Positions 5,150-49,068 of a stretch of DNA of 64,000 nucleotides are shown here, piece after piece. The stretch is from Cirrosporium novae-zelandiae (taxonomy: Eukaryota): the NCBI GenBank assembly GCA_026023565.1, contig JAPETS010000041.1, positions 62,001-126,000 on the forward strand, given 5' to 3'. Position numbers and translations under genes: made by a program. The notes beneath the pieces are model-generated. The model ran no database searches, was not told the origin of the DNA, and was given only the letters and a program-made list of their open reading frames with translations. Positions within the stretch are counted from its first letter, which is position 1; each line of letters begins with the position of its first letter.

Positions 5150-7081
5150 ACTCGCATTGTGGTCATGGCGAGGCCATCAGCAAATGTGCAAAAGTACCAA
5201 CTATCGTTAAAGTTTTTGGTAAGAATAGAAACGCAAGACAATGAAAGGCGTAAATTTGTATCAATACTGAAGTTAGTGAAGTTGCTATATGGCTTAGATA
5301 TTATATTTATATAGATTGATGTGCTTAGGGCCGTCGTACAGGCCCAAATAAGTGTGCAGCAGACGGAGGCGATCATGGTGCTTGGTGGGCCCAAGCTTGA
5401 GTTCAAGGGCAGCAACCAAGAAGTTCTCGAAGGCCCTTGGCCTGCAGAATGGGAGCCACAAGACCAGGGTAAATTACCTAGGGAAGTAAGAATCATCAGT
5501 CCCCAAGATCAGTTACATTAATTACATTCATGACCACAGTAAATTAAATTACTTTACAAAGTAGTCACTGTCACTTAAAATTCAAAAAAAAGAGTAATGG
5601 ACAACAAGAAGCAAAGTGAGATGGTTCATAGATAGATGATATGGATGATGACGGATGAACCAATGATTAATGGACCAAAGGTCTTGGGCGCATCACCCCA
5701 TGTTACTATGTACCCTTTCGGGGACATCCACGGCATGTGTTGAGGAGATGGGAGATGATGAGTAGGACAAGGATCAGATGGGACGGAAGATTATTATGAT
5801 TATTATTGTGGACGATGTGTGAAGTGGCAGTTTGTAACCAACTAAAATACAAATGCTTTTCACCCGGTTTCTCCCTTGGCTTTGTTTGACGATTCAGGCA
5901 AATGAAATAAGAAATGAGCCTTGCCAAGCTTTTGCTTCCAGATTTCTGTTTGTTGGTCTTCAGTTGCCCTCAAGAGTCAAGCAAGCCCTCAACTAAAGTC
6001 TCTCTCCCTCTCTCGGGCCTTCCAGGGCTTGGTACCAAGTAAACGCCCACAAAAGGAATTCCAATCAAATCAATTGATCCATTAATTTGTAAAATTCACA
6101 CACAACTTCGGGCACCTGGGTAACATAACTATAGAAATAATTGAACTTGACATTTCAAATGAATTTTGATAAAAAGAAACAAAAAAGAAACAAAAAAAGA
6201 CTTTTGCGTAATTTGCAACAAGGAACAGCCTTCTCTCTGAATGGAGTCTAGGGCAAAGGCAGATACAGATAAATAGATAATACGTATTATTATATGGGGG
6301 ATTGAAAGTTTTGACAAGACCAGACCCAAGGAACAAGGTATTGTACTTACTTGTATGTAGTGAGTGCATCATCATCATCACCATCAAGTTTTCCCAGATT
6401 TCTGCTGGACAATGTAACTAACTGTAATACAAAGAATGGACTCTAGTTGTGATATAATAATAGTAATTATTAACCAGTGCCTAGACTATCGATTACTTCT
6501 TTTTGCTGCTTTTGGCGCAGTGGAAGCATCAGTGGAAGAGCAGAGCAGAACTGAATAGTTAAAACAGCAAAAAACGCACTTGTTCGCTAAACCGCCTCCC
6601 CTTTAACATCCCAGACCAAAGATTCCTCACCCAACTTTTTTCATCCACCAACCTTCATCCACCACCACATTTTCCGGCGGATCCTCTTCACATTCTCGAG
6701 GAGGAAATTTGCGGATTCAAAACAACAATCTTGTTTGGATTCTGCTAGCTGAAGACCTTTTGCTGAGATCTCGCTCTTCTTCTTTCAAGAGTGATCCTTG
6801 GCCACACAAATTAACTTTGAGTATCAGGTCTGCCAAATTTATCGCAGAAATATCCTGATCTTCATCTTCACCAATTCTCAGCGATTCTTTTTCGCTATTA
6901 CCTCTTAATTACTACTTTTGCTCACCTCACCAGCTTATCTTCACCTCACATTCTACTTCCTTCTCCTATCATCATAATTATCTGGACGTCAATACTTGGA
7001 AATTTTCCAATACATCCAGATCTTATCTTCCGACACAAATTTCGAAACCAAACTTGATCGAGCAAAAACAACAACTCCCGA

Positions 7082-10000
7082 ATGTCCACTCTCGCTCAGC
7101 AACCAGTCCCACAAACCTCATCTACAACGACTTCATCGCAAACGGCTAGCCAGGCGCATTCGCCATCGCCCTCTACAAGCGGCACAACGTCGCAGGCAGC
7201 AGCCGTCCCTGCCCCCACTGCTCGTTCGTACGCCAACGCTACTAAGAGATCTTCTGTCGCGTTAAGTACACCCAATTCGACAGTGGGAGGCTCCGTGCCG
7301 CAACCGCAGCATGGAAAGTCGCCTTCGATCTCTCCAGTAAATGGTAGGAACCCCATCTCACCAGCCGTGCCGGCTGTGAACGCTCCGACAATCGTAAACG
7401 GGAACTCGGTTGCAAATCACAGTTCTGCAGCGCAAGAGCATCACAATACTCATAGCCGAAAACCTTCCGTCACCATCAGCGCTGCTGGATCTAGTGGCTA
7501 TATCCCAAATGGAGGCCCGGTTGACGGGTCAAAACCAAATAACATACAGTTTGGATCAATCAAACCAGGCGGTTCTCCAGCCCCATTACATAGTACTCTC
7601 CAACCCACCCCAAACCCATCAGGCCTTGCCGCAAACCCTCAGATAAATCCTCGAGTCACATCACCACAAACCTCACCTTCACCTATCCCTCAACCTGTTG
7701 CAAGTGGCGGTAGACACCCACCTCCGTCAAGCAACTTTCAAGGCCAAGGCAATATGCCAAGCTTTGGTAGCATGGGCGGCGAGTCTGGAGAGGCAAATGT
7801 AAGTCGGGTTCAATTATTAGCTTCCAATTTCTCAGTTCTAACCAACCCACAGCGCCGTGCATCTGGGCTAGTCCCAGGACCTCAACACATGCGCCGCGAG
7901 TCCTCACAATCTGCACATAGTGATATTCCGAATCCTAATATGGGTCCTGCTGCTAGTCGCGGAGGATACCCCCAAAATGCAGGTCGAGGACGAAATTTCC
8001 CTCCACCTTATCAGCAACATGTGCCATATTCCCCCAGTCTCGGGTATCGCAACATGCAACAGCAGGGTCGTCCCAATTCACAATACGGAGTACAAGGAGG
8101 TCGGCCATTAGCACCATTTCCCAATTCTCCACATCAGTCGGCACGAAGCCCAGTGCCTACGAATGTGACCCCAGTTACGACCCCACAAATGGCACAAGCC
8201 CAATTACCAATGCACCAACCCCACTATGGAGGTTATCAACAACATGCAAGTTATCCCTCTTCTCTTCGAACCCAAAATCGTGGAAATTACAATAAGAATC
8301 GTCGTCCGTCAAAGAATTTCAACAGACCCAATGGCGGGCGCTTTGATAGGCCTAGCGACAAACACTTCAACAGAGACTATGATACTCAGTCTTCTGAGCG
8401 AGGGCACCCTCGTCGCTATCAAAGATCCCCGTCATTTGAGCAGCCCTCATTCCATGAATCGTTTCCTGTCATACCCCTTCAATCCCCTCCCCCCTTTCCA
8501 CCCTCTCTACCCGTTTCGATTCAAAACACCAATTTCTCGCCTGAAAGTGGCAATTTTGAACAAGTAATTCTAACACTTCATTCCGCTTCCCAGAATCCGT
8601 ATGCCATGGCAACACCCTATCCTCAGTTTGTGGACCCCGCCTACTATGGTGGCTTCCCACCCCAGGCCAGCCTGCATCAAATGCCATACGGTATGCCGCC
8701 GTCGTCCCCTCGGCCGCCCTACGCACAGCAACCTGCTCATTACGTGCCGGGTCAATATGGAGCACCCCCTCAGGCTCAACCAATGTCGCGAACATCTTCT
8801 CAAGTTTCTACAACCGATCGACCAGCCTCGAGTATGGGACAAATCCAAGCCCCTCCAATGACGGCTACCCCATCTCAGGGACATGCTCAGCCAGCAAGTA
8901 GCCGATCAAGTAATAGCCCCGCCCCTAAGCCTAATACTAATTTCAAGATACCCCGCAAGAGCGCAGCGATCTCGATTAAGGATCCTACTACAGGTGTGCC
9001 GATTAGCCTGGACAAATCACCGGCTTCACCCGCTTTGCAGGCTCGTGGCACTCCATCTCCAGTCAAGAGTGTACCAACGCCTCCCCCAAGATCAGTAAGC
9101 AGTGCCGATCAACAGCGTAGCCGCTCCGAATCACAGAGCATCAAAACTGATGCTGAAAAGAAGCTTGATTTCAAAGATGAAGTCGCCAAGAAAATCGAAG
9201 CGGATCGAGCTGAGGAGCAGCGACGAAAGGAAGAGGCTCAAAGGGCCGAGAAGGCTGCAAAGGATAAGGCGGAAGCTGAAGCTAGGGAGCGTGAAGCTGC
9301 TGCCATAAGAGAAAAAGACGAAAAGGAGGCCAAAGAGAAGCGACTTCAGGCAGAAGCTGAAGCTAAGAAAGCCGAGGAAGCTGCTGCTGCTGAGAAGAAA
9401 AGGCAAGAAGAAGAAGAAGAAGCCAAGAGGAAGGCCAAGGAAGCCGAAAAGAAAAATGAGCCCGAAGAGATCGATTATGATGCTATCGAGGCCGAATACC
9501 AACGCATGGAAGAGGAAGAAAGGGCAGCCGAAGAAGCATATCAAAAGAAGAAACAAGCTGAAAAAGAAGTGAATGCGGCCAAAGCAAAAGAAGCTGCCGC
9601 CAATGAGGAGGCCGAACTCAAGAGGGCAGAGCGTGAGGCAGAAGAGGCTGAGGAAAAGCGTCTCAAAGAACTTGACAGCAAAAAGGAAAAGGATGATGAA
9701 AATGCTAAACTCTTTGCTTCCCTTAAAAGTCACGGTGGTCTCTCGACTCCAAGTGACGCACTGGCTTCGAAATCACCTGCTGGGAGCGGAACTGCTACCC
9801 CGACATCTGACATCTCAATGCCACCACCTGCCAAGCACGTTGGAAAGCGTGAAAAACCAGCAGCTCTCAAGTTGGAGACAACTAAAACCATTGAACCAGC
9901 TCAGCCGAGTGCTGCCTTGCAGTCTCTTCGATCTGCAAAGAGGATCCTGCGACTAGACGAAATTGCTTACCCTCCTTCAGTTTCATCCCCTAACCCGGCT

Positions 10001-12132
10001 CTAAACTCTCATGCCCCTACAGGCCGATTTAAGTACGACAAGGAATTCTTAATGCAATTCCAGCGAGTTTTCACGGAGAAACCCAGCACTGATTGGGATA
10101 TGAAGGTCGCCGATACTGTAGCTGCTGATGTACCCAAGTCAGCACGCACTCCCAGTATAGCCGGCTTAGGTCCCCGTGGTAGTAGTCGCCACAGTCTTGC
10201 AAATACCTTTAATATGGGACAATTTGGTCAGACTGGCTCAAGGACATTGCCTCCTGGCACTACCTCGGAACAGCGCTTCAATGCTACTATGGGCCCAGGT
10301 GGTGGGCGCCCACCGCTGAACAATCCATTAGGTTCATTTGGACGAGGAAGCTTTCCGATGGCACTTGGATCAATGGGCCGTACTCCATCTTCGGTTTCTC
10401 TCCACAATCAAGTGCCTTCTTCTCCCCGTGTTGGAAGCCATCGTGGCCGGCAAGATAGCAAGCGTACTCATGGCAAGCAAGATAAGAAGAAGGAACACGA
10501 GGAGAATAAGAGTATGCCTCTGACAGCAGGCATGAACCTCACACCTTTACAAGTATCTCAAACTGGTTGGAAACCAAGAAGTATTGGTGCTAGCGCCAAT
10601 CAACCAGGACCAGCGATTGGAGAAATGATGCCTCCCGATATTGTTCAAAGAAAGGTGAAGGCCGCGTTGAACAAGATGACTCCCGAGAAGTTTGATCGTA
10701 TTGCCGATCAGATTCTCACTATTGTGGCTCAAAGCAAGAACGAGAGTGACGGCAGAACACTACGGCAGGTCATTAGTCTTACTTTCGACAAAGCCACTGA
10801 TGAGGCACACTGGGCATCCATGTATGCTATGTTCTGCAAGCGCATGCTTGAAACGATGTCGCCCGAAATAAAAGGTAAATTTCAAATTCATTCCTTCTCA
10901 CTACATGCTAATGTGGAGTTTCTAGATGCCACTATAACCGACCGTCAAGGACAGCCAGTTACAGGAGGCAATCTCTTCCGCAAATATCTCCTCAACAGAT
11001 GCCAGGAAGAATTCGAAAAAGGATGGACCGTCAATCTTCCCAAGAATCCTGAAGGTGCGGAGTCCCATGAAGCTGTTATGTTATCTGATGAATATTACAT
11101 CGCTGCTGCTGCGAAACGACGGGGTTTGGGTCTTGTTAAGTTCATTGGTGAGCTGTTTAAACTTCAGATGCTTACTGAACGAATTATGCATGAATGTGTC
11201 AAAAAACTACTAGAGTTTGAAGGTATGCCAGATGAAGCAGAAGTGGAGAGCTTGACAAGTTTGTTGCGAACGGTTGGTAAAAACTTAGATGAAAGCGAAA
11301 GAGGGCATCCTATGATGGATGCCTACTTCCAGCGTATTGGCGGGCTCATGCAACTCGATGGCTTGAATAGTCGTCTTAGGTTCATGCTTCTAGATGTTAT
11401 TGACCTTCGATCCAAGCATTGGGCCGATAAGAGGTGAGCCAGTCTGCGTGTTATTTTCTGGCAATCAGAGAACTAGGACTAACTTACTTATAGCGCTAAT
11501 AAGGGACCCAAAACTATCCAAGAGATTCGAGAAGAGGCCCAATTGCAAGCTCAAAAGCAAGAACTTGAACGCATGCGCCAGCAAAGCCGAGGCGGTGGTA
11601 GATCTAATATGGGCCGCGGTGACTCCCGACACTTTTCCTCTGGAATGGGACCACCTCAGGACTACAAGCAAAATACTGTTGGTATTGATGATCTTCGCCG
11701 TCTCGGTAGCCGGACCAATTCGAGACAAGTCAGTCATCACGGCACTGGACCTAGTTTCGGACCATCCAGCCTCTTCAACCAACGGAGTAACAGTGGTCGA
11801 CGGACGTTGGGTCCTCAGCTCATGAGGGGCGGAGACGACAGCAGCCATAGCAGCCGAACAGGAACACCCGTTTCCCAGAAGGAGAGGAAAGAAAAGGAGG
11901 AGAAAGAGGCTGCCCATGCCAATTCTTTCAGGTAGATTTTCCCGATCAATTACCATTAAAAGAATCTACTGCTTACACTTTCTTGCTTAGTGCACTAGCC
12001 AGTTTGGATCCTCACGGTGACCACCACGATGCCGGATCCCCCCCTTCGACTAGCGCCTCTCCAATACTCCCCAAGGTTCGACCAACCCATGAGCGTACCC
12101 GATCAAAATCTCCAACGAAGAAAGACGCTTAG
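7082..12132 (+). CDS. TIF4631: Translation initiation factor eIF4G; predicted introns 7799-7852, 8246-8593 (GC-AG), 10875-10925, 11434-11493, 11932-11990
   Basis: eIF4E-binding YxxxxL-phi motif (KYDKEFLMQF); MIF4G domain (VKAALNKMTPEKF...FDKATDE...LLNRCQEEF...FIGELFK...SRLRFML); spliced tail KSANKGPKTI. Confidence 0.96.
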
Positions 12133-33515: not shown

Positions 33516-34466
33516 ATGGCAGGTTATCGTAGCAAACCATCAAGGCAGGTCTCTCGTGTCCTATATGTTTTCTTCCTCTTGCTTCTCCTGCTTGTTTTGC
33601 TGTTTCAGCTCTGGACTAGAAGTAGAGTAAAATAGATTACTGAGATTGATGGCTTGCTTATACTAGTATATTAGGTGAACATTACAAGCAAAGGAAAAGC
33701 GTGAAAAGGAGGCCTTGATGTCGATTCACTATCGGTTATTTTTGTCATATATTGCGCATGTATGATAACGGCAATCCATTATGGTGTTAGAAATTACTTC
33801 CAGGAACTTAACATGAAAGATGTTTCTAATGCTCTTAAGGCTGGACATTCCTCTGGCTAGTTCAATGAAGGCAGAACTTCTGATCAGGTTTGCAGTAGTC
33901 CCACCTCATAGAACAGTCCTTTAAATTATCATTGCCATCAGTCATTTCCAATACTCTCCTTGCCCACCTTATTTTCTTTTAATGCCATCTAATCCATACC
34001 CGGTGGAATTTGAGTAAACATGGAGAGAAGTGTATTAGAATCCATATCATCAAAAACATGATATATTTATCTGTGGCTATTAATGTTCTCACGGACCTCA
34101 TTTTCGCTGGGTTGCCTGTGGCAATTGTATGGAACATTAATCTGAAGAGATCACTCAAGTCCGGTGTTGTTGGAATCTTGGGGCTAGTAGTCCTGTGCGG
34201 CCTCGCAGAGTCTTCAAGTATTTTGACGTTGATAAATTTGTCCCACAGTACTACTGTTGCGACGTTGGTCCGAGTGGGGTATATCGTGGACGTTGACGGG
34301 AATACAAGTCTACTTCGTAAGCTTCTGAACACCATTATTAGCATTGCGTATCTAGTTATTCTACATAGACCCCGTAATCGGATTGGTCACTTGGACCATT
34401 GTTAAAGTAGGCCTGGCCATAATTGCCACCTCCTTATCAACATTTAAACCTCTACTTGTTACCTAG
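33516..34466 (+). pseudogene. Degenerate PTH11-like (fungal rhodopsin-domain) integral membrane protein gene
   Basis: Remnants AIHYG, F*CHLI..RW...GEKC, INVLTDLIFAGLPVAIVWNINL, ATLVR, WTIVKVGLAIIATSLSTFKPL; in-frame stops at 33633, 33672, 33896 and 33980; damaged splice sites. Confidence 0.8.
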
Positions 34467-36630
34467 GTGGAAAATATAGGATTGAATAGAAGCAGTAGAA
34501 AAGCAAGGAACTAGACTAGTACGAGACATCATGGTCACGAAAGTGGCCGAAGCACGGAAGGATTGATGACGGTTATGAACGAGTCTGCAAACTGTTCGAT
34601 ATTTGGCTCGGAATACCATATTTTATTTCAATTTTAGTTTCCTTTTCTTTTTCTTTTCTTTTTTTAAAAAAAAGCGGGTGAGAAACCTAATGTTATAAAT
34701 CAGGAGTCAAATGGATTAGAGGCGACGGGTAAAAAGAAATTTAAAGAGACAGTAGGGATGCGTATTCAGCAGAAAAATGACGTGCAGATATATCAGGATC
34801 CCAAATATGCTTACCTCTGTGGCTTTGTATTGTGGAGAATTTTTTTTGTTGCAGGATCCGCTAAAGAATGCCCTGCTTCTCGATGATGTAAAAAAGGGAA
34901 ACATAATTCAGCCCCCCAGGGCAATACCTATTGTATAGCTAGTCGATGGGCAGCGGGTGACGCGTTACACAACAGGACTTTGGTAGAAATTTACCACCGG
35001 TCCAAACTAAAAAGATTGGGGGTGGTACGGGATGGAAGAAGATACTTGTACCAAAGGAAGGCCAAGGTGCTTGCAATAATCTTCGGACCGTCCCATCTTC
35101 CTAACTAATTATTTTTAGTCTTGGTACATTGATACAAGGCACCTACCTTACCTCACAGCCTTGATGGCTTAGAGGCAAAATCAATAAGGCAAACGGTGGG
35201 ATAGCCCTAAAACTCCTAGGAGCCTTTGGAGCCTTAGAAGCCTCAGGCTAAGAAAAAAAAGAAAAGGTGCTACAATTTTGATGGATCAATCATCAATCCA
35301 TGATACCTGTTTATCTGCACCACCCACTATTTTAGCAAAAGCATGCACAACATGGTTCAAGGAGCTAGGTAAACCACCAATTTTTCCTCCTTTATCATAG
35401 ACCGTTCTCAGTATCCGCACATCCTTTCCTCCCACATGTTCTATCATCCAAGCTAGTACACTAGTTAATCAGTCGAAAAGAACCGGCCCCATGGTCTTGG
35501 ACCATGGTAGGGGAAAATAAAGGGAATGAAAAGAAAAAGAAAAAGAAAGGGTAGGGGCGCCAAAATTGAAAATGATCGTCTACAACCTACGGGTTCGCGC
35601 AATTCATAGCATCGGTGCGGCATGGTTTGAAACTCAAGCAGCTTTTCTTTTTTTGTCGCAATCAACCTAAATGATGCCGTCCATTCGGGGTGCCGAAATC
35701 TCAGACGGTTTTTATCTTAATCGGTTCGGCTGTTCCCTGGGAATTGGACCGTTGACAGCTGCCAAACTACTGCACGTAACCTACTGACCACCTTGCTTGA
35801 GTACCTTAAATTCAAACCAAATAAAATTCACGACGGCGTTCCAGATCTTCCATGGGGGGTACGGAATGAACTTATGGCCCTACCATTATCTAAAAAACAA
35901 ACCGAGCAAAAGCTAGCTACACTTTACCGGTCAACCAGTCCAACGGGCTCCCAGTGGAACCTGGTTAGTAGAACAGCGCTATAGGGAAGCAACCATGAAC
36001 TACTTGGACCCATGGATAATATCCAGCCCTAGCATTCCGTGTGCATTTGAATCCCATAGCAAGTGGAGTTTTTGAACCGATATCTAGTCAAATCAATCCT
36101 AACTTCTCATGTATTCCGTTAAAAGTACAACAGGACCACTATTGGCCTTCGGGAAATAATCCTCCACAGCTCCTGTATGCTAGAAAATGCTCAAGGGGCA
36201 ACATAAGGTGAAAATGCCACCCCAGTATCAGACGATACCATCTCGTCTCATGCATGTATAAGTGCGGAGAAAAAAAAAACACCGGGGAATAAAACCGAGA
36301 AAGACTCTCAAACACCGGATTTTGCAATGACAAGCTTCCCAAAGAGATAAAAAAAAGATAAAAGCATGGCAAATACAACATGTAAACCCTGCTGTATCAC
36401 GACGACAATCGATTTAAAACCGACCACTTCTGGTAGTCAACATATCCCATGCGCCACAGCCGATCCTTGGAATTATGCTATGAACAACGGCCCTGATCAT
36501 GACTCAACTCCATGATGCATGTCCGATCTATTACCTTCCTCCGCCCCCACCTGTCATGACTCATGCCGATTGCTGATCCAACCGAAAGGGAGGAAGCCGT
36601 TAATACATAGAAGGTGGTGAGAGAATCCAA

Positions 36631-38355
36631 TCATTGATAGCTGTTAGGATTTTGAGCATCTGGATCTAGGAATCAGTCAGTCCACCATCAAGAGTCAATA
36701 GACACAGATGGGGTCACCAACGTTGCTGGTAGACTTGATTTTGGGGGGTATATGGCGAGTGAGGATATTGGTAGTTCACTTGGCCATTCCCTTGCTGATA
36801 CATCTGGTTGGTCATGCCGTCACTGGGAGCAGTGTATTGGCCTGGAGCCTGAGGCGTTGCAGCAGGCCCGTAGCCAATGGGTGGTAATTGGCGAACGCCA
36901 ACAGGTTGAAAGGTCTGAGGAGGATTTTGATTCGGATCCGCACCTTGGCTTTCCACTTGCTGTTGCGCTTGTGCGGCAGCAGCAGCGCGTTGGCGCTCTT
37001 CTTCCTGCTTTCGCTGGTTTTCTTCCTCCTTCTTGCGAGCCTTCCACTCTTTGCGAATTTCCTTAAATTCTGTAAACATCAGCCCGGTTAGTCGAGCACA
37101 ATACGATCCCTCGTTATACAATTAAAGTGATGGGAGCAACCTTGTCGTAGGAGGGTACGCTAATTGAAAGCTACCTTAGATTCACGCCCACGCCAAGAGT
37201 TGCCATAAAATAGACCAACGCGTGGCACACGTTGTGTAACGCGACTACTTTTCCAGGGTTGCCTCTAACCAAAATTGCAAGTTTGCGACCAAACACAAAA
37301 CAGAGTGAAATTAAAATATATCCACGTACCTTCGGGCGTACGCTTGGCACCATGAGCTTGCATCGTTACATGCGCGTTCAAATGATTCAAGGTACCATAA
37401 GCCTTTTCGCATCCATTCCACCCGCATTTGTACATACGTTCGATTTCCTCATAACGACGTCGAGGACGCTTGTGCTGTTGCGCACCGGGAATCGGGACGA
37501 AAGAGTACACTTGTGAAAGCGGGTGCGTCTGTAGAACCCCATAAGGACCAGGGACATACATGTGGGGGTAAATGCCAAAAGCGCTGCTACTAACCTGTCC
37601 CGGGCGTGGAGGTGGCGCCGTCGTTGTAGGAGCGCCGGCAGGCATACCTGCCGCTGTACCATATGGACCGGGAATACCATATGGGTATGCTGAATGAACT
37701 TGTGGTGGCCAATCTGCTCTCTGATGCATTTGTTGTGGTGGCGGATAACCTTGGTGCTGTGGTAGTTCATGGCCTTGAGGCTGGTACGGAGAATATGGCG
37801 GTGGATAGGTAGGGCTCGACTGCGCTATGGAGGGATCTATGGGAACATCGGGGTCAGACTTCAGTTGGGTAGAATTTTGATGGTTTCGCTGTTCCCCATC
37901 TTGAAGGGTTTTGGACGGACTTGTTGATTGTGCCATTGCTCCAACTGCTGTATTTGGGTGTTGCGGCACCGGTGCGTACTGCTGTTGTGATGGCGGCGGT
38001 TGTTGTTGTTGCTGCTGTTGTTGTTGTGGTGTCGCGAATTCAGGAAAACCTCCAGAACGCGCCGAGGGCGGTTGAATGTTGTACTCGGATTTGGGCGTAG
38101 CAGAGGAAGAAACGGTCGAGCGCACCTCCGGTTGAGGGGTGTACTGCGCAGCAGATGCTTGATCTGGTGTGTTGATGATTCAGTAAGGTGTTTTGGGTTG
38201 TTGTAAGGTCTGGGTGGGATGGATGAGCAATACATACCTGACTGCGGAAAATCGGAGGCACTTCTGTCCATCAAACTTGTATCCCGTCGCGTGTCTCTGA
38301 TAGCAGCAAGGCTTGGATGAGATGTCAGCATCGCGATACTCGACATGTTCGACAT
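36631..38355 (-). CDS. con7: C2H2 zinc-finger transcription factor Con7; introns 36666-36721, 37070-37329, 37529-37594 (possibly retained), 38164-38237; alternative in-frame start at 38271
   Basis: VYSFVPIPGAQQHKRPRRRYEEIERMYKCGWNGCEKAYGTLNHLNAHV...KRTPE|EFKEIRKEWKARKKEEE is the Con7 signature. Confidence 0.92.
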
Positions 38356-38667
38356 GTTTGGATAATGGAATCAAATCAACAAAGAGTATAGCAACAGGGT
38401 TCACCAACTCTAAGAAGCTTTTGAGAACGTGTCGCGGGCTTTAGCCTTGCGACGATGCAAAGAGCGAACGGAAAGCTCGAGAGATGCTTAATCGCAAGAA
38501 CGACGGTCGCTGGGCAGGGACGGGCGTCCGGTGTATTGTACCAGCTCGTGGATAGGGTAATAGGGTGGTGTCGAGGGAAAAGGACGGGGGTAGGCTTAGG
38601 GTCAAAGCCAGAGACCAGGGAGAGGGTCTTAAGAGCGGCAAAAGACCAGATGCAGCGGTAAAAGCAC

Positions 38668-38728
38668 CTAGTTGGAGCGAGGGTTAGTTTGGCTGGAGAG
38701 GGTAAAGCTAGGTAGGCGTGAAGAATAC
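38668..38728 (-). other. Predicted 5'-UTR intron of con7 (61 nt)
   Basis: Minus strand GTATTC...CTAAC cctcgctccaac TAG. Confidence 0.5.
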
Positions 38729-39180
38729 CGAATCGAGTAAGTGAGTCGTTAGGGAGGTATTAGTGAAGGAGTTAGAAGGTCTTAGGAAGGAGCGCGATGC
38801 CGGTTTGGCTCAAGGGGCGATCTGGGTACTTTAGAGACTTTTTTTTTCCTTTCGACTTCGGACGAGCACTAGTGGTCTTGGATTGCTCTAGTATTTCCGT
38901 AATGGCGTCGAAAGAGCGGACTGGGATTTAGGAAGTAAAAAAGGATGATGATGGAGGAATTCAGGGAACGGAGTATGCGGTGTGCGGATGGCCGGCACCG
39001 CTTAAAAGATCCGCTAAGACTAACTAGGCGAGCCAAAGCTGTTGTTGCGTAGTAAGGTGGAGATTTTTTTTTGGATATTGGATGAATCAACTTGTCCCCC
39101 GGTGGGTAAATGATCTTGATGATTTGGTGATATGATGATATTGTGGGACTTTTTTTCTTTCTTCCCCTTCTTTTGGTATT

Positions 39181-39383
39181 CTACAAAGAAAGAGAGTTAA
39201 TTAGGTTACTTTTTTTTTCTTTTTTTTTTTTGAGTTCTGCCAATTGTAAATAATCAAGGGCTTTTTTGGGGTGGGGAGGAAAGAGAAGGGCGTGTGGGTA
39301 TGTGTGGGGGGGTGTGTATTATCATTTGTAATTTCTTTGCTTTGTGTATGTATATGTATGTGTGTGTGTGTGGGTTTCATTAC
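39181..39383 (-). other. Predicted 5'-UTR intron of con7 (alternative donor at 39415)
   Basis: AAG|GTAATG (or GTAAGG) donor; CTAAT/TTAAC branch, pyrimidine tract ctctttctttg, TAG acceptor. Confidence 0.55.
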
Positions 39384-42300
39384 CTTGGGCTTTGGCCTTT
39401 TTTTTGACACCTTACGAAATTTGCGGCTATTTTGAAAGTCAATGAGGGGGGGGGTTGTGGATTCCTTGGGAGCAGCTGATGTGTGCGCCTTTCACTAAAA
39501 AAGTTACTGGCTGTGCCTCGAGCTCAAAGTTCCTGTTCAGACTTCGTCCCAAGGAGATTTGATTCAATGTGGTTAATGCACCGATAGAGAGAGAAAAGTC
39601 GAAAATTTAGGAGGAACCAAGGCGTGTTCTGACTAGTGTTCTGACAACCCAAGGTGCGGGACCCAAACCCAAGAAAGCGTGTGCACCAGAGGGAACGTCA
39701 CAAAAAATTCCCTTGAACTTCCCTTGGGGGTATCCCTAAGGTATCAATACTTGGAAAGTACTTGGAAGAGACTTGAAATACCTTTGATCTAGTCAATTCT
39801 AGTTCAAACTTAAACCGTGAACTTCACGAGTCGAGGTCAATTCAATTTAAACGAGAATTGACAATGTCGAATGTCGGCTCCGAAATTGTCGATAGAGTTT
39901 CGCTGCACAACCCTTCTCTGGAAAATTTCAAATGCCGTGGGGCAGAAAAAAAATATCAGGGAAAAAAAACCTGAGGCTGGACAGTTCAGACTACCTCAGG
40001 CTTTTCTGGTGGCCGAGAGTTATCGAACTTGATGTCGATCAGGCTGTTGTTGATGGATCTAGTAGGTGGTAGATGACGGTAGTACTAGCAGCACGTTGTA
40101 CGGGATTATTAGTATCGAATACGACCGCCACTAATAATAATATGGGCCGTTTTAGAGTGAAAGGGTAGGTATCAAAGGTATCAAAGGTAACAAGTATGGG
40201 GTATAGACTATAGTATCCAAGATACAAATCCCTCCCCCCAACCGTTTGTCCTTCGACTGCTCTTCTTATTTCACTTGGAACTGCTTGAAACGGGTTTGAA
40301 CCTGCAAGAAGCCTACTCAATCCTACTGGTCTACGAAATTGCAAAGGTCCTTTGACAGAGTGAGAGGCAGATATACTCTAGAAAGTACGAAAGGTGAAAA
40401 AGTGAAAAAAAGAGGTCGACCAAGTGATGGAGTGTGTGAGGTTGTTGTCTCTTTGCATATCCCTCTGTGCAGGGGGTCCGGGGGTGTAAAAGGTCTGGTC
40501 GGGTAAAGCTGGTTTTGGTTTCGTGGTTTTCCAATCTTTTTCGTTTGACCGCCTTCCGGCTTCGCAAGTCGCAAGTCACCAAAATCGCAAGGACCCAGGT
40601 AGCCAACCCCAGCAAAGGAATCCCAGAAAATCCCAGAAAATTCCACTGCAAAGTCAAACTTCTAAACTTCTCCCCCCCCTAGGCAGGGGCCCCGGCTATA
40701 ACCCCAGCAGAATGGCAGATGTCCTGCGTTTTGTGTGGTGCGTGCTTTTCAATAATACTAAGGGAAGTAATGTCTGATATTCCGATTCCTGCTATGCCCT
40801 TAAGCTGCTGCGTGCAGCCTGTAGCGTGCAGCGTGCGGTTACCTATCCCGAGTTCCCACTGACCAGACAGAGGAAGCTTTGGGGCTAAGAAGGATGATGG
40901 TGACCAGCCGATGACGCTGGCACTGGCACCACTGACTGTCTCCCACCCACCACCTACTTTTGGGCACCCTCCCACGAGTCAAGGCCCGCTCAACTTAACG
41001 CTGCTAGCACTATCACTATTCAGGAGTAGTCGACCGATTGTTTCCCTGTTTCCTGGCTCGTACTTGGTACCTTACCGACGTCAACTCGGTAAGGCAGGTA
41101 GCGCGTACGGATGGAATCTGATAATGGAAGAACGGATGACTGGTTCTTGCCCTTTGAGTATTCAACTACCACCCGTAGCCGTAGCCGTAGCCGCAGCCAC
41201 TGAGCACAAACGAGATGGGGTAGAAAGAGTACAAGCAAATAATGATAGCGATTAATGCCGAGTTGTTGTTGTTGTTGTCGTCGTTGTTGTTCTTACGGTG
41301 TATGAGAGTTCCAATAATAATACCAATGATGATGACGATGATGTCGTGAATTGTACTGAGAAGAAGCCTCAGTTCTTCCGTCGATCGCCACCTTCCAAAT
41401 CAACTACCTAGTGGAATCTTGAATGTCGCAACAGCTAGCCGTCACGTGAGCCGAAAACAAATCCTTGGTAGGATTTTAACCAAAGTTCTGAAAAAAATCA
41501 GACCAGGATCGAATGAGGATAACCCCGAAGCTGTCTGCCGCCTGTCTGCCGCGAGCGTTGATTTATGAATCTGATGCTGATTGTTGATTGCACTAAATCC
41601 CAAATAATGCCAGATTAAATGCCAGATGGAGCCTTGGTGGATCTTGACGTCGCAGGCTTCTCCGTGATGATTAACAATTATTAAAAACTTTGATTGAATT
41701 GTTCCAATTGATACTTGAAATTTGATGATTACTCCCCGGCAAAACCTCGCTGCAATTTTGGTCTGCAATTTGTCCGTCCCTTTTCTTGGATATTAAGAAC
41801 GGTGAATGGCGCCAAGGAAGGGTGAATTGTAAGAACCTGGAACTGCTTGTGACTATGTCTGACGATATGCAGATGTGCCAGATGTGCCAGATGACCGACA
41901 ATGATGCTGATGCTGATGTGGTTATGAAACTATTCCACCAACATTGAATTTTGAGGGATGAAAATTTTGGCCCCTCTTTTGTGTTTTTTTTTCTTTCTTT
42001 TTCTTCTCCAAAATACCTAAAGTTCGTTCTACTAGAGGCCTTCCAAAAGGCGGTATCCCTGATTTCACTGCATCAAATAATGTACAATACTCATGCGGAT
42101 AAAAAAAAATTTAAGCTTGTTGTTTGTCGACCAGCCCAGTCCCAGCGACCTTGAAAGCCTATAGGCCTATAACTCTGTATAGCAAGGGCAATCCCCGGAG
42201 AATACTGATTCCAAATAGTCGCTTGTTGAGACAATACGTACAGCTACTTCGTAACAAGGCTTCTGGAAGTGTCTTGAACTCTCCTCTTCATGCCTTAAGG

Positions 42301-44720
42301 GAAGGAGAGTTTGATGAAACTTTGAATCTCGGCAAGTGTAAAAATTAAAAAAAAAAAGTGTCTGAGTCTCATGCAGGGAGAAATAGTGAATATGACGATT
42401 TGACGACAAAGTACCGAGGCCGGACTGATCAACTCCAACTTGTCTCTCGTTTAAAGGTCGTTAGCGGTTCCCCCTGAGAATCTCGGGTCGTCTTTTGTCC
42501 AGTGCCCAAATTTCCGTAACCGCGAATTTAGGATTTCGCAAATAGGCAATTCGCAATTCAACTCAACTCCCGCCGCTTCAGGCTTCAGGGGTGAAACTAT
42601 GGAGATCTCAGATGGAAGGCCGTGGTCTGGTAACCTGCCAGTCTGGGTCGGCACAACTGAACTTTGGTTCTTGGTTCAAAGAGTCAAAAAAGGCCCAGCC
42701 ACAACAGACCGAAACCTAACGCAAGCAATAGGATTAGCTATTCACTTTCTTGCTTCTACCACTAATATCCTGTACACAAAGACTTAGAAATCATTTTTTT
42801 AATTCAAACTTTCTAGTGTGGGGAGGGAACCTTCTTGGGGTAATCCGAACGCGAAAGAGATGCCTATGGTAACATGGAAAAAGTCCAATAACGGATATAC
42901 ACGCCGGCTATGCCGAATGCCCGCCGTCAATAATTTGAGGTAGACAGCGCGACCAACTTATCAATATGATGATGATGACTTCTATTAGATATATCCTTGG
43001 TGACAACCAATAGCCGCATGGAAGGCAAGGAACACCTTGTTCAATGGGGGAAGTGTTCGATGTATCGCACAGAGCAAGGACCCTACGTCTGTGTCCTTGA
43101 TGGACTGTGGAGAAGAGTTAGGATGATCTGACTGCTGAGACTAGAGACAACAACACAAGTTCGAAGTTGGGTGCAGCAGTGGATGATTGACTTTTTCCAG
43201 CAGCATACAATGTGAAAACTGCCAATGGGCCCTTGCACGTTTGGTCTAGCCAAGGTAGGTTTAGGACTTGAACGAGAGGATGAGGCTGAATCTATGGATA
43301 AACTCGAAGGAACAGTCAGTAGAATCATCGAAGGATGTCAATCCTGGGCCGGACCATGCAGCTAAAAGATAGTATCAAATACAGAACAAAGATGACTTTC
43401 AAGATAACCAAGGTCTGGTGCAAGGAGCGGAGGATGGCCGTATTTTTCTACTCAATAACAGGGAATCGTGCTACAAGTCCCCCAGGCGCTATTCTACGGA
43501 TTATAGGACTTATCATGAGGCAGTGGGGATGGAGAATCTGGCACCTTGACAGCAATCGAACAACGAGAGGACGCAATGTGTGCTGTGCCATCATGCATCC
43601 ACGCGAATGATGCTGATCCAAACATGCTGATCCAAACATGGACGAAGGGGCAGAAAAGCACATTTCCGCAGTAGCGATCCGATAGAGAGAAAAGTCTGAC
43701 CCAAGAAAAACCTAGAATTCAAGTGAGAGAACAATCGACGTGTTACATTCTCAACAATACTACATAATATGCCTGTCAGAAAGCAAGACTCGCCATTAGA
43801 TATCCAATTCTCCGTCGGCAGAGCCTCGCTGATTATGGATAGGCGGGGCGAATGTTCCGCTTCGCGTGTCTTGAGTAAACTCTGATATAATTGACGGTGC
43901 TAAGTGGCGGCTATTGCAGTACTTGCTCCACACCATGCTGGCAGGATACATGAATGAGATGTGAGAGGAGCATAGGTGGATTTACTCATGGTGTATGAAA
44001 GTACTCTGAACCTGATATTTTATGGTAGGTATGTGCGGATATTTGCACAATCCGTTCCCCGGTCACCAGGATGATTGTGGTTCGTGGCAGGTTGACCCTA
44101 CTTCAGGCAAGTTAGGAGCGCGATATGTGAGTGGAGGATATGGCGGAACAATGTTTCTCTACAGGCTTGGAATACGGTCAATCACCGCATATCAAAGTAA
44201 TTAAATTAAAACAGATTCGTATTCTTGTTTCGAGCATCCAATGAGTCAATGAAAGTGATGATTCATGAGTTGAATCAGATAGGGTGCCGTGTGGGTGCTA
44301 CTGCGGTAAGAATGCTAAGAATACTCCGAGTCAGTAATCTAATATGGGTTTGGAGCAAACATTAAGTGAAAAGTTCTTAACCCTTAGTGGATTGCGGGGA
44401 CTAGAAGGTTTGGAGATTTCCATGAAATAGAAAGTCCAAGGTAGAGAAATAGTCATCAATACAAGTTGATGATGGATAAATCTCCGATTGATGGTTGAAT
44501 CTTAGAGGTCAGCGGTACCTTAGGTACTTATTCAAACGAGCTATTTTGCGAAACGAAGAGCTAAGACGTTTTTTATTTTTATTTTTATTTTATTTTATCA
44601 ATCATCCACGAGATTGACAGATGATAATGATGATGGATCCAAAAGTGTCAATAATAATTTCGCTTCATTTCTTGTCATTTCATAGATCGATGGTCCAATC
44701 GATAGTTAGATAAGTGAATA

Positions 44721-44768
44721 TGTATGTATGTGTATGTATGATGTGTGTGTGTATGTACGTATGTATGT
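44721..44768. repeat. (TATG)n/(TG)n microsatellite
   Basis: tgtatgtatgtgtatgtatg...tgtgtgtgtatgtacgtatgtatgt. Confidence 0.8.
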
Positions 44769-44893
44769 AGGTAAGTACATGTCTCTTGAATTTTGAGTCT
44801 GAAGTCTCACCGACATTTACCGCTTTGACCTTTTCTTTTTGCCCATCCCCCTCTTCCAAAATTGGATGAAATCAAGCCTGCTGTCAAATGGTC

Positions 44894-44938
44894 AAATCAG
44901 TAAATCAGCAAATCAGCAAATCAGCAAATCAGCAAATC
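44894..44938. repeat. 8-bp tandem repeat (AAATCAGC), about 5.5 copies
   Basis: aaatcagt aaatcagc aaatcagc aaatcagc aaatcagc aaatc. Confidence 0.9.
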
Positions 44939-46568
44939 GCCTCCCCAGTCCTTCACTCTCAGTCAAGCAGTCAAACAGTCTCGCCCTTCTTTCCTTTATT
45001 TCCTATTTGCCGGGGCTGGCTCCTTGTTGGAGTGAGAGAGATGGTAAAAGGAGGTCATGTGTGAATTCACCCCATGTGCATAAAAGCATTATTAAATCAT
45101 AGACACCGTAACGTCGCAAGGAATCCGATGGAATGACGGCGTAAAAGTTAACAGAGTTAAATTTCCTTCGGATTTGTTGCTTGTCTGGGAACCCCCCCTC
45201 CCTCTCCCTTCAGAGTACCCTTCCATGCCTCCCTCCCCCCACCACTACCATTATTACTACTACCAGCACCAGCACCACCACCATAATCATCCAATGCTAA
45301 TTTCCCTCAGCTACCTGCCACTCCTGGCGATGCGAAAAACCAGGCTGCATCCGAAAATGCCGCGAGCAAAGTCACAATCCCATGCCGCCTGTTGTGAATG
45401 ATCCTTTTCCATTCGGTCATATGACCTGATGCCTGGAGTGGTGTGTCTGCTTGATACTCTGTGCCGTCCAAGCTCGAGGGGGCAAAGATTAATGAGGATT
45501 GTCGCTTGACCTTCAAAAAAAGAAATAATGGTGGATGTCCTTTTGTTCTTTTTCTAAGTTGTTGGAAAAGTTATGGTCGACTTTTGATAGCTCAAGATGC
45601 TAGCGGTTCCAGCATTGCGGATGAGCGATTCCAAAAGCCTCAAAGTCGACACTTTCTTTTCCCAAGACGGGAAAAGTCTGAAGCTACGAGGTTGTGCTAC
45701 TTCACAAGCGCTTCTTTTACTTGGACCTCACCTCTCATCTTGGTTGTTACAGTCATTCAAATCACCGTTTGGATCATGTTATCCGAAAACTACACTTATA
45801 CCTGCAAAGTCCTACCAATTCCTCGATCGCAACACCATCACTGTCTGTATAGTAAACACCTACATATCCTCCTCCGGAACTCCAGAGGACAATTTGCCTT
45901 TTCCATAAGTAGCATCATTCTTCATCTCCTGATGATAGTAGGCTACCTATTATATGCTGGGTGGTTGATGGGAATCAAGTGCAGATATCCCACAGTGTAA
46001 GAAGTAACAGAACGATATCTGATCGAGGATTCAATTGACTAAACCACTGTACAACATTTTCGAAGATGATGGCCTGTAACACCCGAAGTATCGCTAATCA
46101 ATATAGCCGGGAAACGAAGTAGAGATTAAGTGTGACACTTCGTAGACCGTGTTACAGCGGTGATGCTGCTCAACTAACCTCGTCAACTACCAAGACTGAA
46201 GGAAGGAACCAAGTGCTGAAAATAATTGCCATTCCAATTAAATATATTCATTGGCCCAATCACCTACATAACCCTATCTGATGCTTTTGTAAGAAAAGAG
46301 CACACAAAGTGCCACATACGCCATTTAGAAATGACAAGATCGTGACCCTAGTCACGGATATTTGTCTAACCATGATCTTCTAAGAATTCCTCTTGCAATA
46401 TGGCCACCTAACTGGTCACTGGTGGAGGACAAGATGAGCGAAACTTAGCCATGCAAGTGATGCCCGAGTAATAACAGGGCAGTAAACGCCTGAATCATAA
46501 AAAGCCAGTCTAGACAACGCCAGAAGAGCGAATAGCAGAAATCTATGGGGGTATCCCTGGACTAGAGC

Positions 46569-49068
<2,500 letters not shown>

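Follow-up and report, generated by a model that had tools for sequence, protein, structure and literature searches.

A strand-specific AUG desert adjoining the con7 start codon in Cirrosporium novae-zelandiae and orthologous fungal loci: a candidate kilobase-scale 5' leader

Upstream AUG codons are depleted from the 5' untranslated regions (UTRs) of eukaryotic mRNAs, a textbook corollary of the scanning model, and the 5'-extended messages known as long undecoded transcript isoforms (LUTIs) are poorly translated owing to the upstream open reading frames (uORFs) they contain. In Candida albicans, long 5' UTRs have been reported for WOR1 (1997 nt), CZF1 (1662 nt) and EFG1 (1139 nt), and that of UME6 is also very long; the WOR1 leader has no AUG-initiated uORFs and lowers translational efficiency (PMC4552353). 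In mammals, ATG is depleted around regions in which transcription begins at many sites, and such ATG-desert promoters give one protein whatever the start (Lee et al., 2005, Genome Res 15:1189, as described in PMC5580651). Distal promoters also yield 5'-extended isoforms of regulators, including the LUTIs of yeast (PMC8829799) and isoforms in Histoplasma (bioRxiv 10.64898/2026.08.26.747414). The present analysis concerns a 64-kb stretch of the Cirrosporium novae-zelandiae genome (the window), in which the con7 gene is preceded by more than 3 kb of DNA almost devoid of AUG on the con7 sense strand.

In plant-pathogenic fungi, Con7 has a central part in regulating conidiation, appressorium formation, and virulence (PMC8475275, PMC11694984, PMC11237738). 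In the excerpts of this literature that were searched, its control is placed at the levels of transcription and alternative splicing.

Sense-strand AUG depletion upstream of con7

The con7 gene lies on the minus strand, and AUG in the con7 sense appears as CAT on the plus strand. In the 3586 nt that end at the con7 start codon (38356-41941), CAT occurs only three times, at 39323, 39378, and 40456, against an expected 65 if the rate of the whole window applied, or 35.6 given the dinucleotide content of the tract itself. Plus-strand ATG, which is antisense to con7, occurs 72 times (63.8 expected). The original prediction, which had set these three CAT triplets against dozens of ATG triplets, is borne out by the counts. 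The three longest CAT-free gaps of the window (1486, 1078, and 970 nt) all lie inside this tract, and the fourth-longest gap measures 455 nt. Dinucleotide-preserving shuffles of the tract (n = 2000) had a mean of 35.6 CAT, a standard deviation of 4.8, and a minimum of 18; none contained three or fewer, and the Poisson P of the depletion is 2.9e-12. Within the 64-kb window, the depletion thus survives a composition-matched null.

The effect is confined to one triplet as well as to one strand. CAT has an observed-to-expected ratio (O/E) of 0.08 in the tract, whereas the next lowest trinucleotide, ACA, stands at 0.52, and the other CA-bearing triplets CAA (1.39) and CAC (1.25) are undepleted. When deserts of all 64 trinucleotides were scanned across the window, CAT in this tract ranked first with 53.5 nats, and TTG came second with 19.2 nats. 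A hidden coding region is ruled out by the 41-44 stops in each of the three closed sense frames (longest open run, 128 codons) and by the two scanned open reading frames (ORFs), one per strand, neither of which has a Pfam match. Repeat-induced point mutation (RIP) and dinucleotide bias are ruled out by the shuffles, by the undepleted CAA and CAC, and by the fact that the distal part of the tract, with its balanced composition, is the most significant. A search of 36000-46500 against Rfam gave no match at E <= 0.1. Small tandem repeats, as called by Tandem Repeats Finder (TRF), are abundant in the desert.

Three AUG-free runs make up the desert: a proximal run of 967 nt (P = 0.004 on local composition), a middle run of 1075 nt (P = 1e-4), and a distal run of 1483 nt (P = 1.3e-9). 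The G-poor sense strand lowers the expectation for the proximal run to 5.4 AUG. Sense (C-G)/(C+G) ranges from 0.08 to 0.44 across the first seven 300-nt bins, where the plus-strand GC skew is 0.2-0.4, and the residual AUG at 40456-40458 marks the boundary between this C-skewed proximal part and the unskewed distal part. Beyond 41941, AUG does return, as originally described, but not at full density: up to 43499 it falls short of expectation (Table 1; P = 0.01, marginal) while antisense ATG is normal (32 against 25.8 expected), and normal sense-AUG density is found only from about 43.5 kb outward. This half-depleted zone may be due to chance, or to start sites that lie farther out and are used more rarely.

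Orthologous loci and cDNA-like contigs

Metagenome contigs were scanned with the con7 zinc-finger exon, and 80 of the 387 confirmed stretches were analysed. ATG spacing played no part in setting the start codons, which were placed by tblastn with N-terminal peptides, and near-identical duplicates (L018, L043, L048, L052, L063, L046, L037, L035, L028, and L038) were removed. Fifteen non-redundant loci with a homology-fixed start and at least 1 kb of upstream sequence were kept. In 14 of them, a sense ATG-poor tract of 1.2-3.5 kb adjoins the start codon (Table 1), and antisense counts are normal. The AUG comparison upstream of con7 orthologues, suggested together with the original prediction, finds deserts in several fungal classes. 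The nearest named proteins are up to 95% identical for Pleosporales-like loci (L076 and a Pyrenophora tritici-repentis entry), 58-77% for Mycosphaerellales-like Dothideomycetes, 75-81% for Helotiales (Leotiomycetes)-like loci, and 46-66% for Candelariomycetes- or Lecanoromycetes-like loci.

In the fixed 1000 nt upstream of the homology-inferred start, pooled over the 15 loci, ATG occurs 18 times (110 expected) and CAT 215 times (205.7 expected); 12 of the 18 ATG sit in a single locus, L036. This fixed-length test is the unbiased one. Figures for the pooled deserts are biased, their edges being set by ATG positions; with that bias, the 14 deserts (26,747 nt) have an O/E of 0.049 for ATG and 0.75-1.48 for other triplets, and near-cognate codons are undepleted at 0.97-1.48. 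A likelihood scan covered both strands of about 285 kb of non-redundant loci; together with the 64-kb window, these metagenome loci serve as the null for AUG depletion. Sixteen of the non-redundant loci are at least 4 kb long and extend upstream of the zinc-finger exon by more than 1.2 kb. The con7-upstream segment was the top segment in all 16, with 19-51 nats, lengths of 1.2-3.8 kb, and 0-3 ATG, and no other ATG desert on either strand of these loci exceeded 11.7 nats or 1.1 kb. In three further loci, for which homology gave no fixed start (L039, L047, and L061), the top segments measure 1459, 1869, and 1720 nt and lie where expected.

What is kept across these loci is not the sequence of the tract. 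A blastn comparison of the window leader with the 80 loci gave no hit, and alignments of more distant locus pairs are limited to about 10-360 nt from the start codon, so the conserved trait is the absence of AUG. The moderately related L070 and L076 are 82% identical over 2.7 kb, the proximal 1.1 kb of the leader being conserved like the coding region. A strand- and triplet-specific depletion that adjoins the start codon is thus maintained in orthologues without sequence conservation.

The orthologous deserts have a distal edge with features of its own. Past it, most orthologues show an abrupt rise in ATG, to 13-26 per kb. Sense C exceeds G in nearly every 300-nt bin of the deserts, an excess of which the missing ATGs would explain only a small part, and this skew flips to zero or negative values at the same edge. 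In three Pleosporales-like loci, highly conserved blocks straddle the edge (L076 7250-7750, L072 7400-7900, and L070 3700-4200), and the last ATGs of these loci lie within the blocks (CCATGCC, CATGGCATGG), just outside the edge. About 100-160 nt inside the edge, all three have a conserved TATTTTT followed by a CT-rich tract, which, by fungal promoter lore, we take to be a candidate distal core promoter.

Some of the contigs bear on the transcripts themselves. In 30 of the 80, introns are missing and the zinc-finger exon is joined in frame to the next exon, and several of these contigs align as spliced pieces to the genomic loci L076, L070, and L078; they are therefore cDNA-like and presumably represent metatranscriptome assemblies. 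Upstream of the first in-frame AUG, the 30 contigs (some of them near-duplicates) hold no ATG and 146 CAT in 7918 nt, over leaders of 80-762 nt, the longest being 762, 644, 533, and 500 nt. Real con7 mRNAs of orthologues thus have AUG-free 5' UTRs of at least several hundred nucleotides.

The same contigs differ within the N-terminal coding region, where some carry a 54-nt segment that is missing from near-identical ones (L009 595-648, compared with L012, L017, and L033; L044 127-180, compared with L056 and L060; also L076 9207-9260). The pattern suggests a small in-frame intron that is alternatively retained, and it agrees with the many CON7 isoforms that have been reported.

Scanned leader and alternative architectures

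With chance and composition excluded, the depletion of one triplet on one strand points to selection on a sense RNA that is scanned by ribosomes. DNA-level causes (a binding site, for example, or a mutational bias) would not be confined to a single triplet on a single strand, which argues for selection at the level of RNA. Because AUGs in constitutive introns would escape purging, most of the tract is expected to be exonic in some important con7 mRNAs. The desert is probably the 5' leader region of translated con7 mRNAs, scanned linearly, with a major start site near its distal edge. The DNA of the desert would be transcribed in the con7 sense direction from at least one major start site near that edge. 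In most lineages the edge is found at about 1.5-2 kb upstream; in the window and in L077 it lies as far out as about 3.5 kb. Cap-loaded 43S complexes would then scan the leader linearly; any AUG within it would capture them or trigger decay, so that AUGs would be purged while the remaining sequence drifts freely. By analogy with WOR1 and UME6 of C. albicans, such a leader might set or gate the translational efficiency of a morphogenesis regulator without blocking it, and an AUG-free tract would allow distal and proximal promoters to yield the same protein.

The original prediction of a kilobase-scale AUG-free leader thus stands as far as the specific depletion next to the start codon, its recurrence in orthologues, and AUG-free cDNA leaders of up to 762 nt are concerned; a leader of the full 3.6 kb, and the choice between one leader and a series of promoters, are conjectural.

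Several observations weigh against a leader of this kind. Scanning over several kilobases is generally deemed inefficient. The longest leader seen directly is about 0.8 kb (762 nt, contig ends not being start sites), and in three pairs of cDNA-like and genomic contigs the former cover 128-429 nt of deserts of 1.7-1.9 kb. RNA folding compared with shuffles gave a mean z of 0.02 in 35 sense windows and of 0.10 in antisense, which is no signal for or against a scanning-friendly leader. One locus, L036 (= L037, start at 2744), is without a desert and has 12 ATG and 12 CAT in the first kilobase; its protein is 87% identical to an Aureobasidium entry, and the desert may have been lost in this yeast-like lineage. 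Transcription of the full desert in the window, its distal part included, is inferred, as are the positions of start sites and any splicing; a search for public RNA runs containing 38356-41941 gave none. The C>G skew of the window is confined to the proximal 2.1 kb and ends at the residual AUG at 40458, so that the distal 1.5 kb, statistically the strongest part of the desert, may be a separate unit, for example an exon of a distal promoter.

The residual AUGs also count on this side: three remain in the desert of the window and one to three in several orthologous deserts. Two of the three (39380-39378 and 39325-39323) lie inside a candidate 5' UTR intron at 39181-39383, and would open uORFs of 59 and 23 codons if left unspliced. 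By eye, this candidate has a CTAAT/TTAAC branch-like site and a TTTCTTTGTAG acceptor (TTTGTAG at 39181), and a TG/CA microsatellite called by TRF (39343-39372) lies within it. All the splice-like motifs originally named are present: GTAATG and GTAAGG at 39383 and 39415, TTTGTAG at 39181, GTATTC at 38728, and ACTAAC followed by TAG at 38668. Splicing of the candidate intron would plausibly remove two of the three residual AUGs. With at most three AUG-initiated uORFs in 3.6 kb, and 0-3 in the orthologous deserts, the tract does not resemble a uORF-laden repressive leader of the LUTI type.

The strongest rival to a long scanned leader is a promoter that extends over many start sites, dispersed or alternative, in which case the desert would be the union of leaders of a few hundred nucleotides distributed across 1.5-3.6 kb, with no giant leader. 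The same selective logic would cover the specificity for strand and triplet, and ATG deserts at dispersed promoters have been described in mammals (PMC5580651, PMC3001478). The cDNA-like contigs end at varied positions, none beyond 762 nt, although an assembled contig's 5' end does not mark a start site. In Histoplasma, transcription factor genes show an enrichment of alternative isoforms with longer leaders (bioRxiv 10.64898/2026.08.26.747414), and the half-depleted zone of the window would fit a gradient of ever rarer distal starts. Rare distal starts should, however, let the depletion decay gradually, whereas it is near complete up to a sharp edge and is followed, in most orthologues, by 13-26 ATG per kb. 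The skew flips at this same edge, and the conserved promoter-like block lies there in three related loci; taken together, the sharp edge, the skew flip, and the block favour a substantial start near the edge over diffuse promoters. A start near the edge is accordingly judged probable, while diffuse promoters with short leaders are judged unlikely, if still a serious contender, and the two models are not exclusive.

A separate sense non-coding RNA upstream of con7, which would regulate the gene by, for example, transcriptional interference and be kept AUG-free to avoid translation or nonsense-mediated decay, is improbable. We know of no general avoidance of AUG among long non-coding RNAs (lncRNAs), and the deserts of orthologues continue unbroken into the start codon; in the window, neither an Rfam match nor a structure signal was obtained. 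A strand-specific constraint on RNA would equally be expected of such a transcript, the distal 1.5 kb of the window differs in composition and is set off by a uORF-opening AUG, and lncRNAs of Pyricularia oryzae are expressed alongside neighbouring genes (PMC8475275).

Internal ribosome entry, with the leader as a platform for elements of, for example, the poly(A)-tract or Pab1 type, is more improbable still. Five A-runs of 8 nt or longer occur on the sense strand of the window leader, and use of internal ribosome entry sites in invasive-growth genes of yeast is mentioned in PMC4552353. However, entry near the start codon would make the purging of far-upstream AUGs needless, and the A-runs are unconserved, with 0-1 per desert in the 14 orthologues. 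Lastly, chance, local composition, or a mutational process (RIP or transcription-coupled bias) acting without selection on AUG is effectively refuted by the shuffles, the local-composition test, and the presence of the desert at the corresponding position of 14 out of 15 independent loci, even though the G-poor proximal strand lowers the expected count.

Gene context and comparison with known systems

The con7 label of the window gene is supported by the precomputed annotation of a database protein, P0003, together with a Con7-type finger. P0003, a Cirrosporium novae-zelandiae entry (class Xylobotryomycetes) of 435 aa, carries PF27979, a family named CON7_helical; a local Pfam search gave no PF27979 match, and Zap1_zf1 was borderline on the con7 protein (27.1 bits, cutoff 27.2). 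Exon 3 encodes YKCGWNGCEKAYGTLNHLNAHVTMQAHG, the single C2H2 finger of Con7 type; at E <= 1e-3 it has 1497 protein matches, and in many Pezizomycotina the identity is 94-100%. The Con7p of P. oryzae has 412 aa (PMC8475275) and the window protein 413 aa, so that the two are close in length.

In the gene model, the introns are of the GT..AG type and measure 74, 66, and 260 nt. Model and P0003 are the same apart from 22 aa, the product of reading through the 66-nt intron 2 (37529-37594, minus strand) in P0003; this intron is in frame and free of stops. Orthologous cDNA-like contigs are spliced at its position (for example L002 compared with L076), which favours the 413-aa model. The start codon, at which the desert ends, has A at -3. 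It lies within a 9-nt tandem duplication at 38340-38358 (TRF unit TCGACATGT, 2.1 copies) that yields two in-frame AUGs three codons apart (MSNMSS).

Table 1. Features of the con7 locus in the window, and AUG-poor tracts upstream of con7 in orthologous loci
Feature	Position	Strand	Details
con7-type C2H2 transcription factor gene	36714..38355	-	413 aa; exons 38355-38238, 38163-37595, 37528-37330, 37069-36714
Sense-strand AUG desert, candidate con7 mRNA leader region	38356..41941	-	3 AUG in 3586 nt
Proximal desert, 2.1 kb	38356..40455	-	Sense C-rich/G-poor like orthologous deserts (composition bins)
Distal desert, 1.5 kb	40459..41941	-	0 AUG, 20.5 expected; without C>G skew; many short tandem repeats
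Half-depleted zone past the sharp edge	41942..43499	-	11 sense AUG, 21.5 expected
Candidate 5' UTR intron (original prediction)	39181..39383	-	Donors AAG|GTAATG or TTC|GTAAGG; alternative donor 39415
Second candidate 5' UTR intron, 61 nt	38668..38728	-	GTATTC donor; ACTAAC 15 nt before TAG acceptor
Third residual upstream AUG	40456..40458	-	Context AGGGATATGC; opens a 26-codon uORF
L007, ATG-free run upstream of start			1734 nt
L011, ATG-free run upstream of start			2139 nt
L041, ATG-free run upstream of start			1521 nt
L049, ATG-free run upstream of start			1761 nt
L054, ATG-free run upstream of start			At least 1215 nt (contig end)
L057, ATG-free run upstream of start			1433 nt
L069, ATG-free run upstream of start			1960 nt
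L072, ATG-free run upstream of start			1622 nt
L076, ATG-free run upstream of start			1674 nt
L078, ATG-free run upstream of start			1939 nt
L050, upstream tract			1494 nt, 1 ATG
L070, upstream tract			1908 nt, 1 ATG
L077, upstream tract			3508 nt, 2 ATG
L030, upstream tract			1970 nt, 3 ATG, all within 636 nt of the start

The first recognisable gene upstream of con7 encodes a DEAD-box helicase (47540-48607, minus strand). The roughly 4.5 kb between the desert and this gene (41942-46500) hold only ORFs without a Pfam match, among them a 181-aa ORF (45455-46000) that has neither a Pfam match nor a relative among longer proteins, and the intergenic space upstream of con7 may extend to 8 kb. Downstream of con7, a fungal rhodopsin domain (PF20684, E 3e-8) is encoded by an ORF fragment at 33983-34405 (plus strand). 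The window's next-best ATG desert lies elsewhere, at 6437-7310 on the plus strand (874 nt, 1 ATG, 10.9 nats); it precedes and enters ORF 7058-11437, an open frame of 1459 aa with eIF_4G1 and MIF4G domains. An eIF4G gene would thus seem to be a further case of a long AUG-poor leader.

With a conserved AUG-free leader of kilobase scale, the control of con7 would gain a translational layer. No mention of a long or AUG-free con7 leader was found in the excerpts of the con7 literature searched, which comprised PMC8475275 with its supplements, PMC11694984, PMC11237738, and PMC5294800, but not Odenbach et al. (2007) or Ruiz-Roldan et al. (2015); a literature search on AUG-free kilobase-scale scanned 5' UTRs likewise returned nothing relevant. 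A P. oryzae construct limited to the annotated CON7 transcript, driven by the CON7 promoter, did not restore appressorium formation, whereas the genomic fragment did (PMC8475275), a result on which the leader may bear. If the long scanned leader is real, start sites are predicted 1.5-3.6 kb upstream of con7, as is sensitivity to inserted AUGs.

A wider proposal is put forward tentatively, as a possibility short of an expectation: con7 mRNAs of most Pezizomycotina would carry a leader of 1.5-3.6 kb that is scanned end to end, its freedom from AUG under selection since the divergence of the classes (Dothideomycetes, Leotiomycetes, Candelariomycetes-like lineages, and Xylobotryomycetes), and it would act as a length-dependent translational gate. 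If this were true, the con7 leader would be among the longest and most deeply conserved scanning-competent leaders known, and the gate would be sensitive to helicase or eIF4F capacity, coupling morphogenesis to the translational state of the cell. Kilobase-scale sense ATG deserts could then be used to detect, from sequence alone, master regulators with long leaders in fungal genomes that lack annotation. More generally, transcript architecture can be read from raw DNA by way of a strand-specific trinucleotide desert, even where metagenome-assembled fungi come without RNA data.

Among described systems, the WOR1 leader of C. albicans is the closest in kind. Both cases would involve a kilobase-scale, AUG-free leader on the mRNA of a master transcription factor of morphogenesis or cell fate, and the con7 tract has three AUGs in 3586 nt and none in runs of 967, 1075, and 1483 nt. 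They differ in gene family and subphylum, and the leader of con7, a gene of Pezizomycotina, is unmapped, being deduced from sequence statistics, and would reach about 3.6 kb. The AUG-freeness of con7 is conserved across several classes, and such conservation was not met with for WOR1 in the excerpts of PMC4552353. The idea is nevertheless less new than the original prediction implied, given that the 1997-nt WOR1 leader is reported to be without AUG uORFs (PMC4552353).

With the ATG-desert promoters of mammals, the con7 locus shares ATG depletion across a candidate initiation region, here strand-specific, which would serve one protein from many starts. The dispersed starts in mammals span 50-100 nt (PMC5580651), however, whereas the con7 tract measures 1.2-3.6 kb, is strictly strand-specific, and belongs to one orthologous gene across fungi. 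Compared with LUTIs and the extended isoforms of Histoplasma, which are poorly translated, the con7 extension is AUG-free, so that long isoforms should stay decodable. The general depletion of upstream AUGs follows the same selective logic, but con7 differs in scale, the next desert in the window being the 874-nt one. The kind of element is therefore already known from the WOR1 leader and from ATG deserts, and the con7 tract is a further member, notable for its length of up to 3.6 kb, its conservation across classes in spite of unconserved sequence, and its use as an indicator of transcript architecture from sequence alone.

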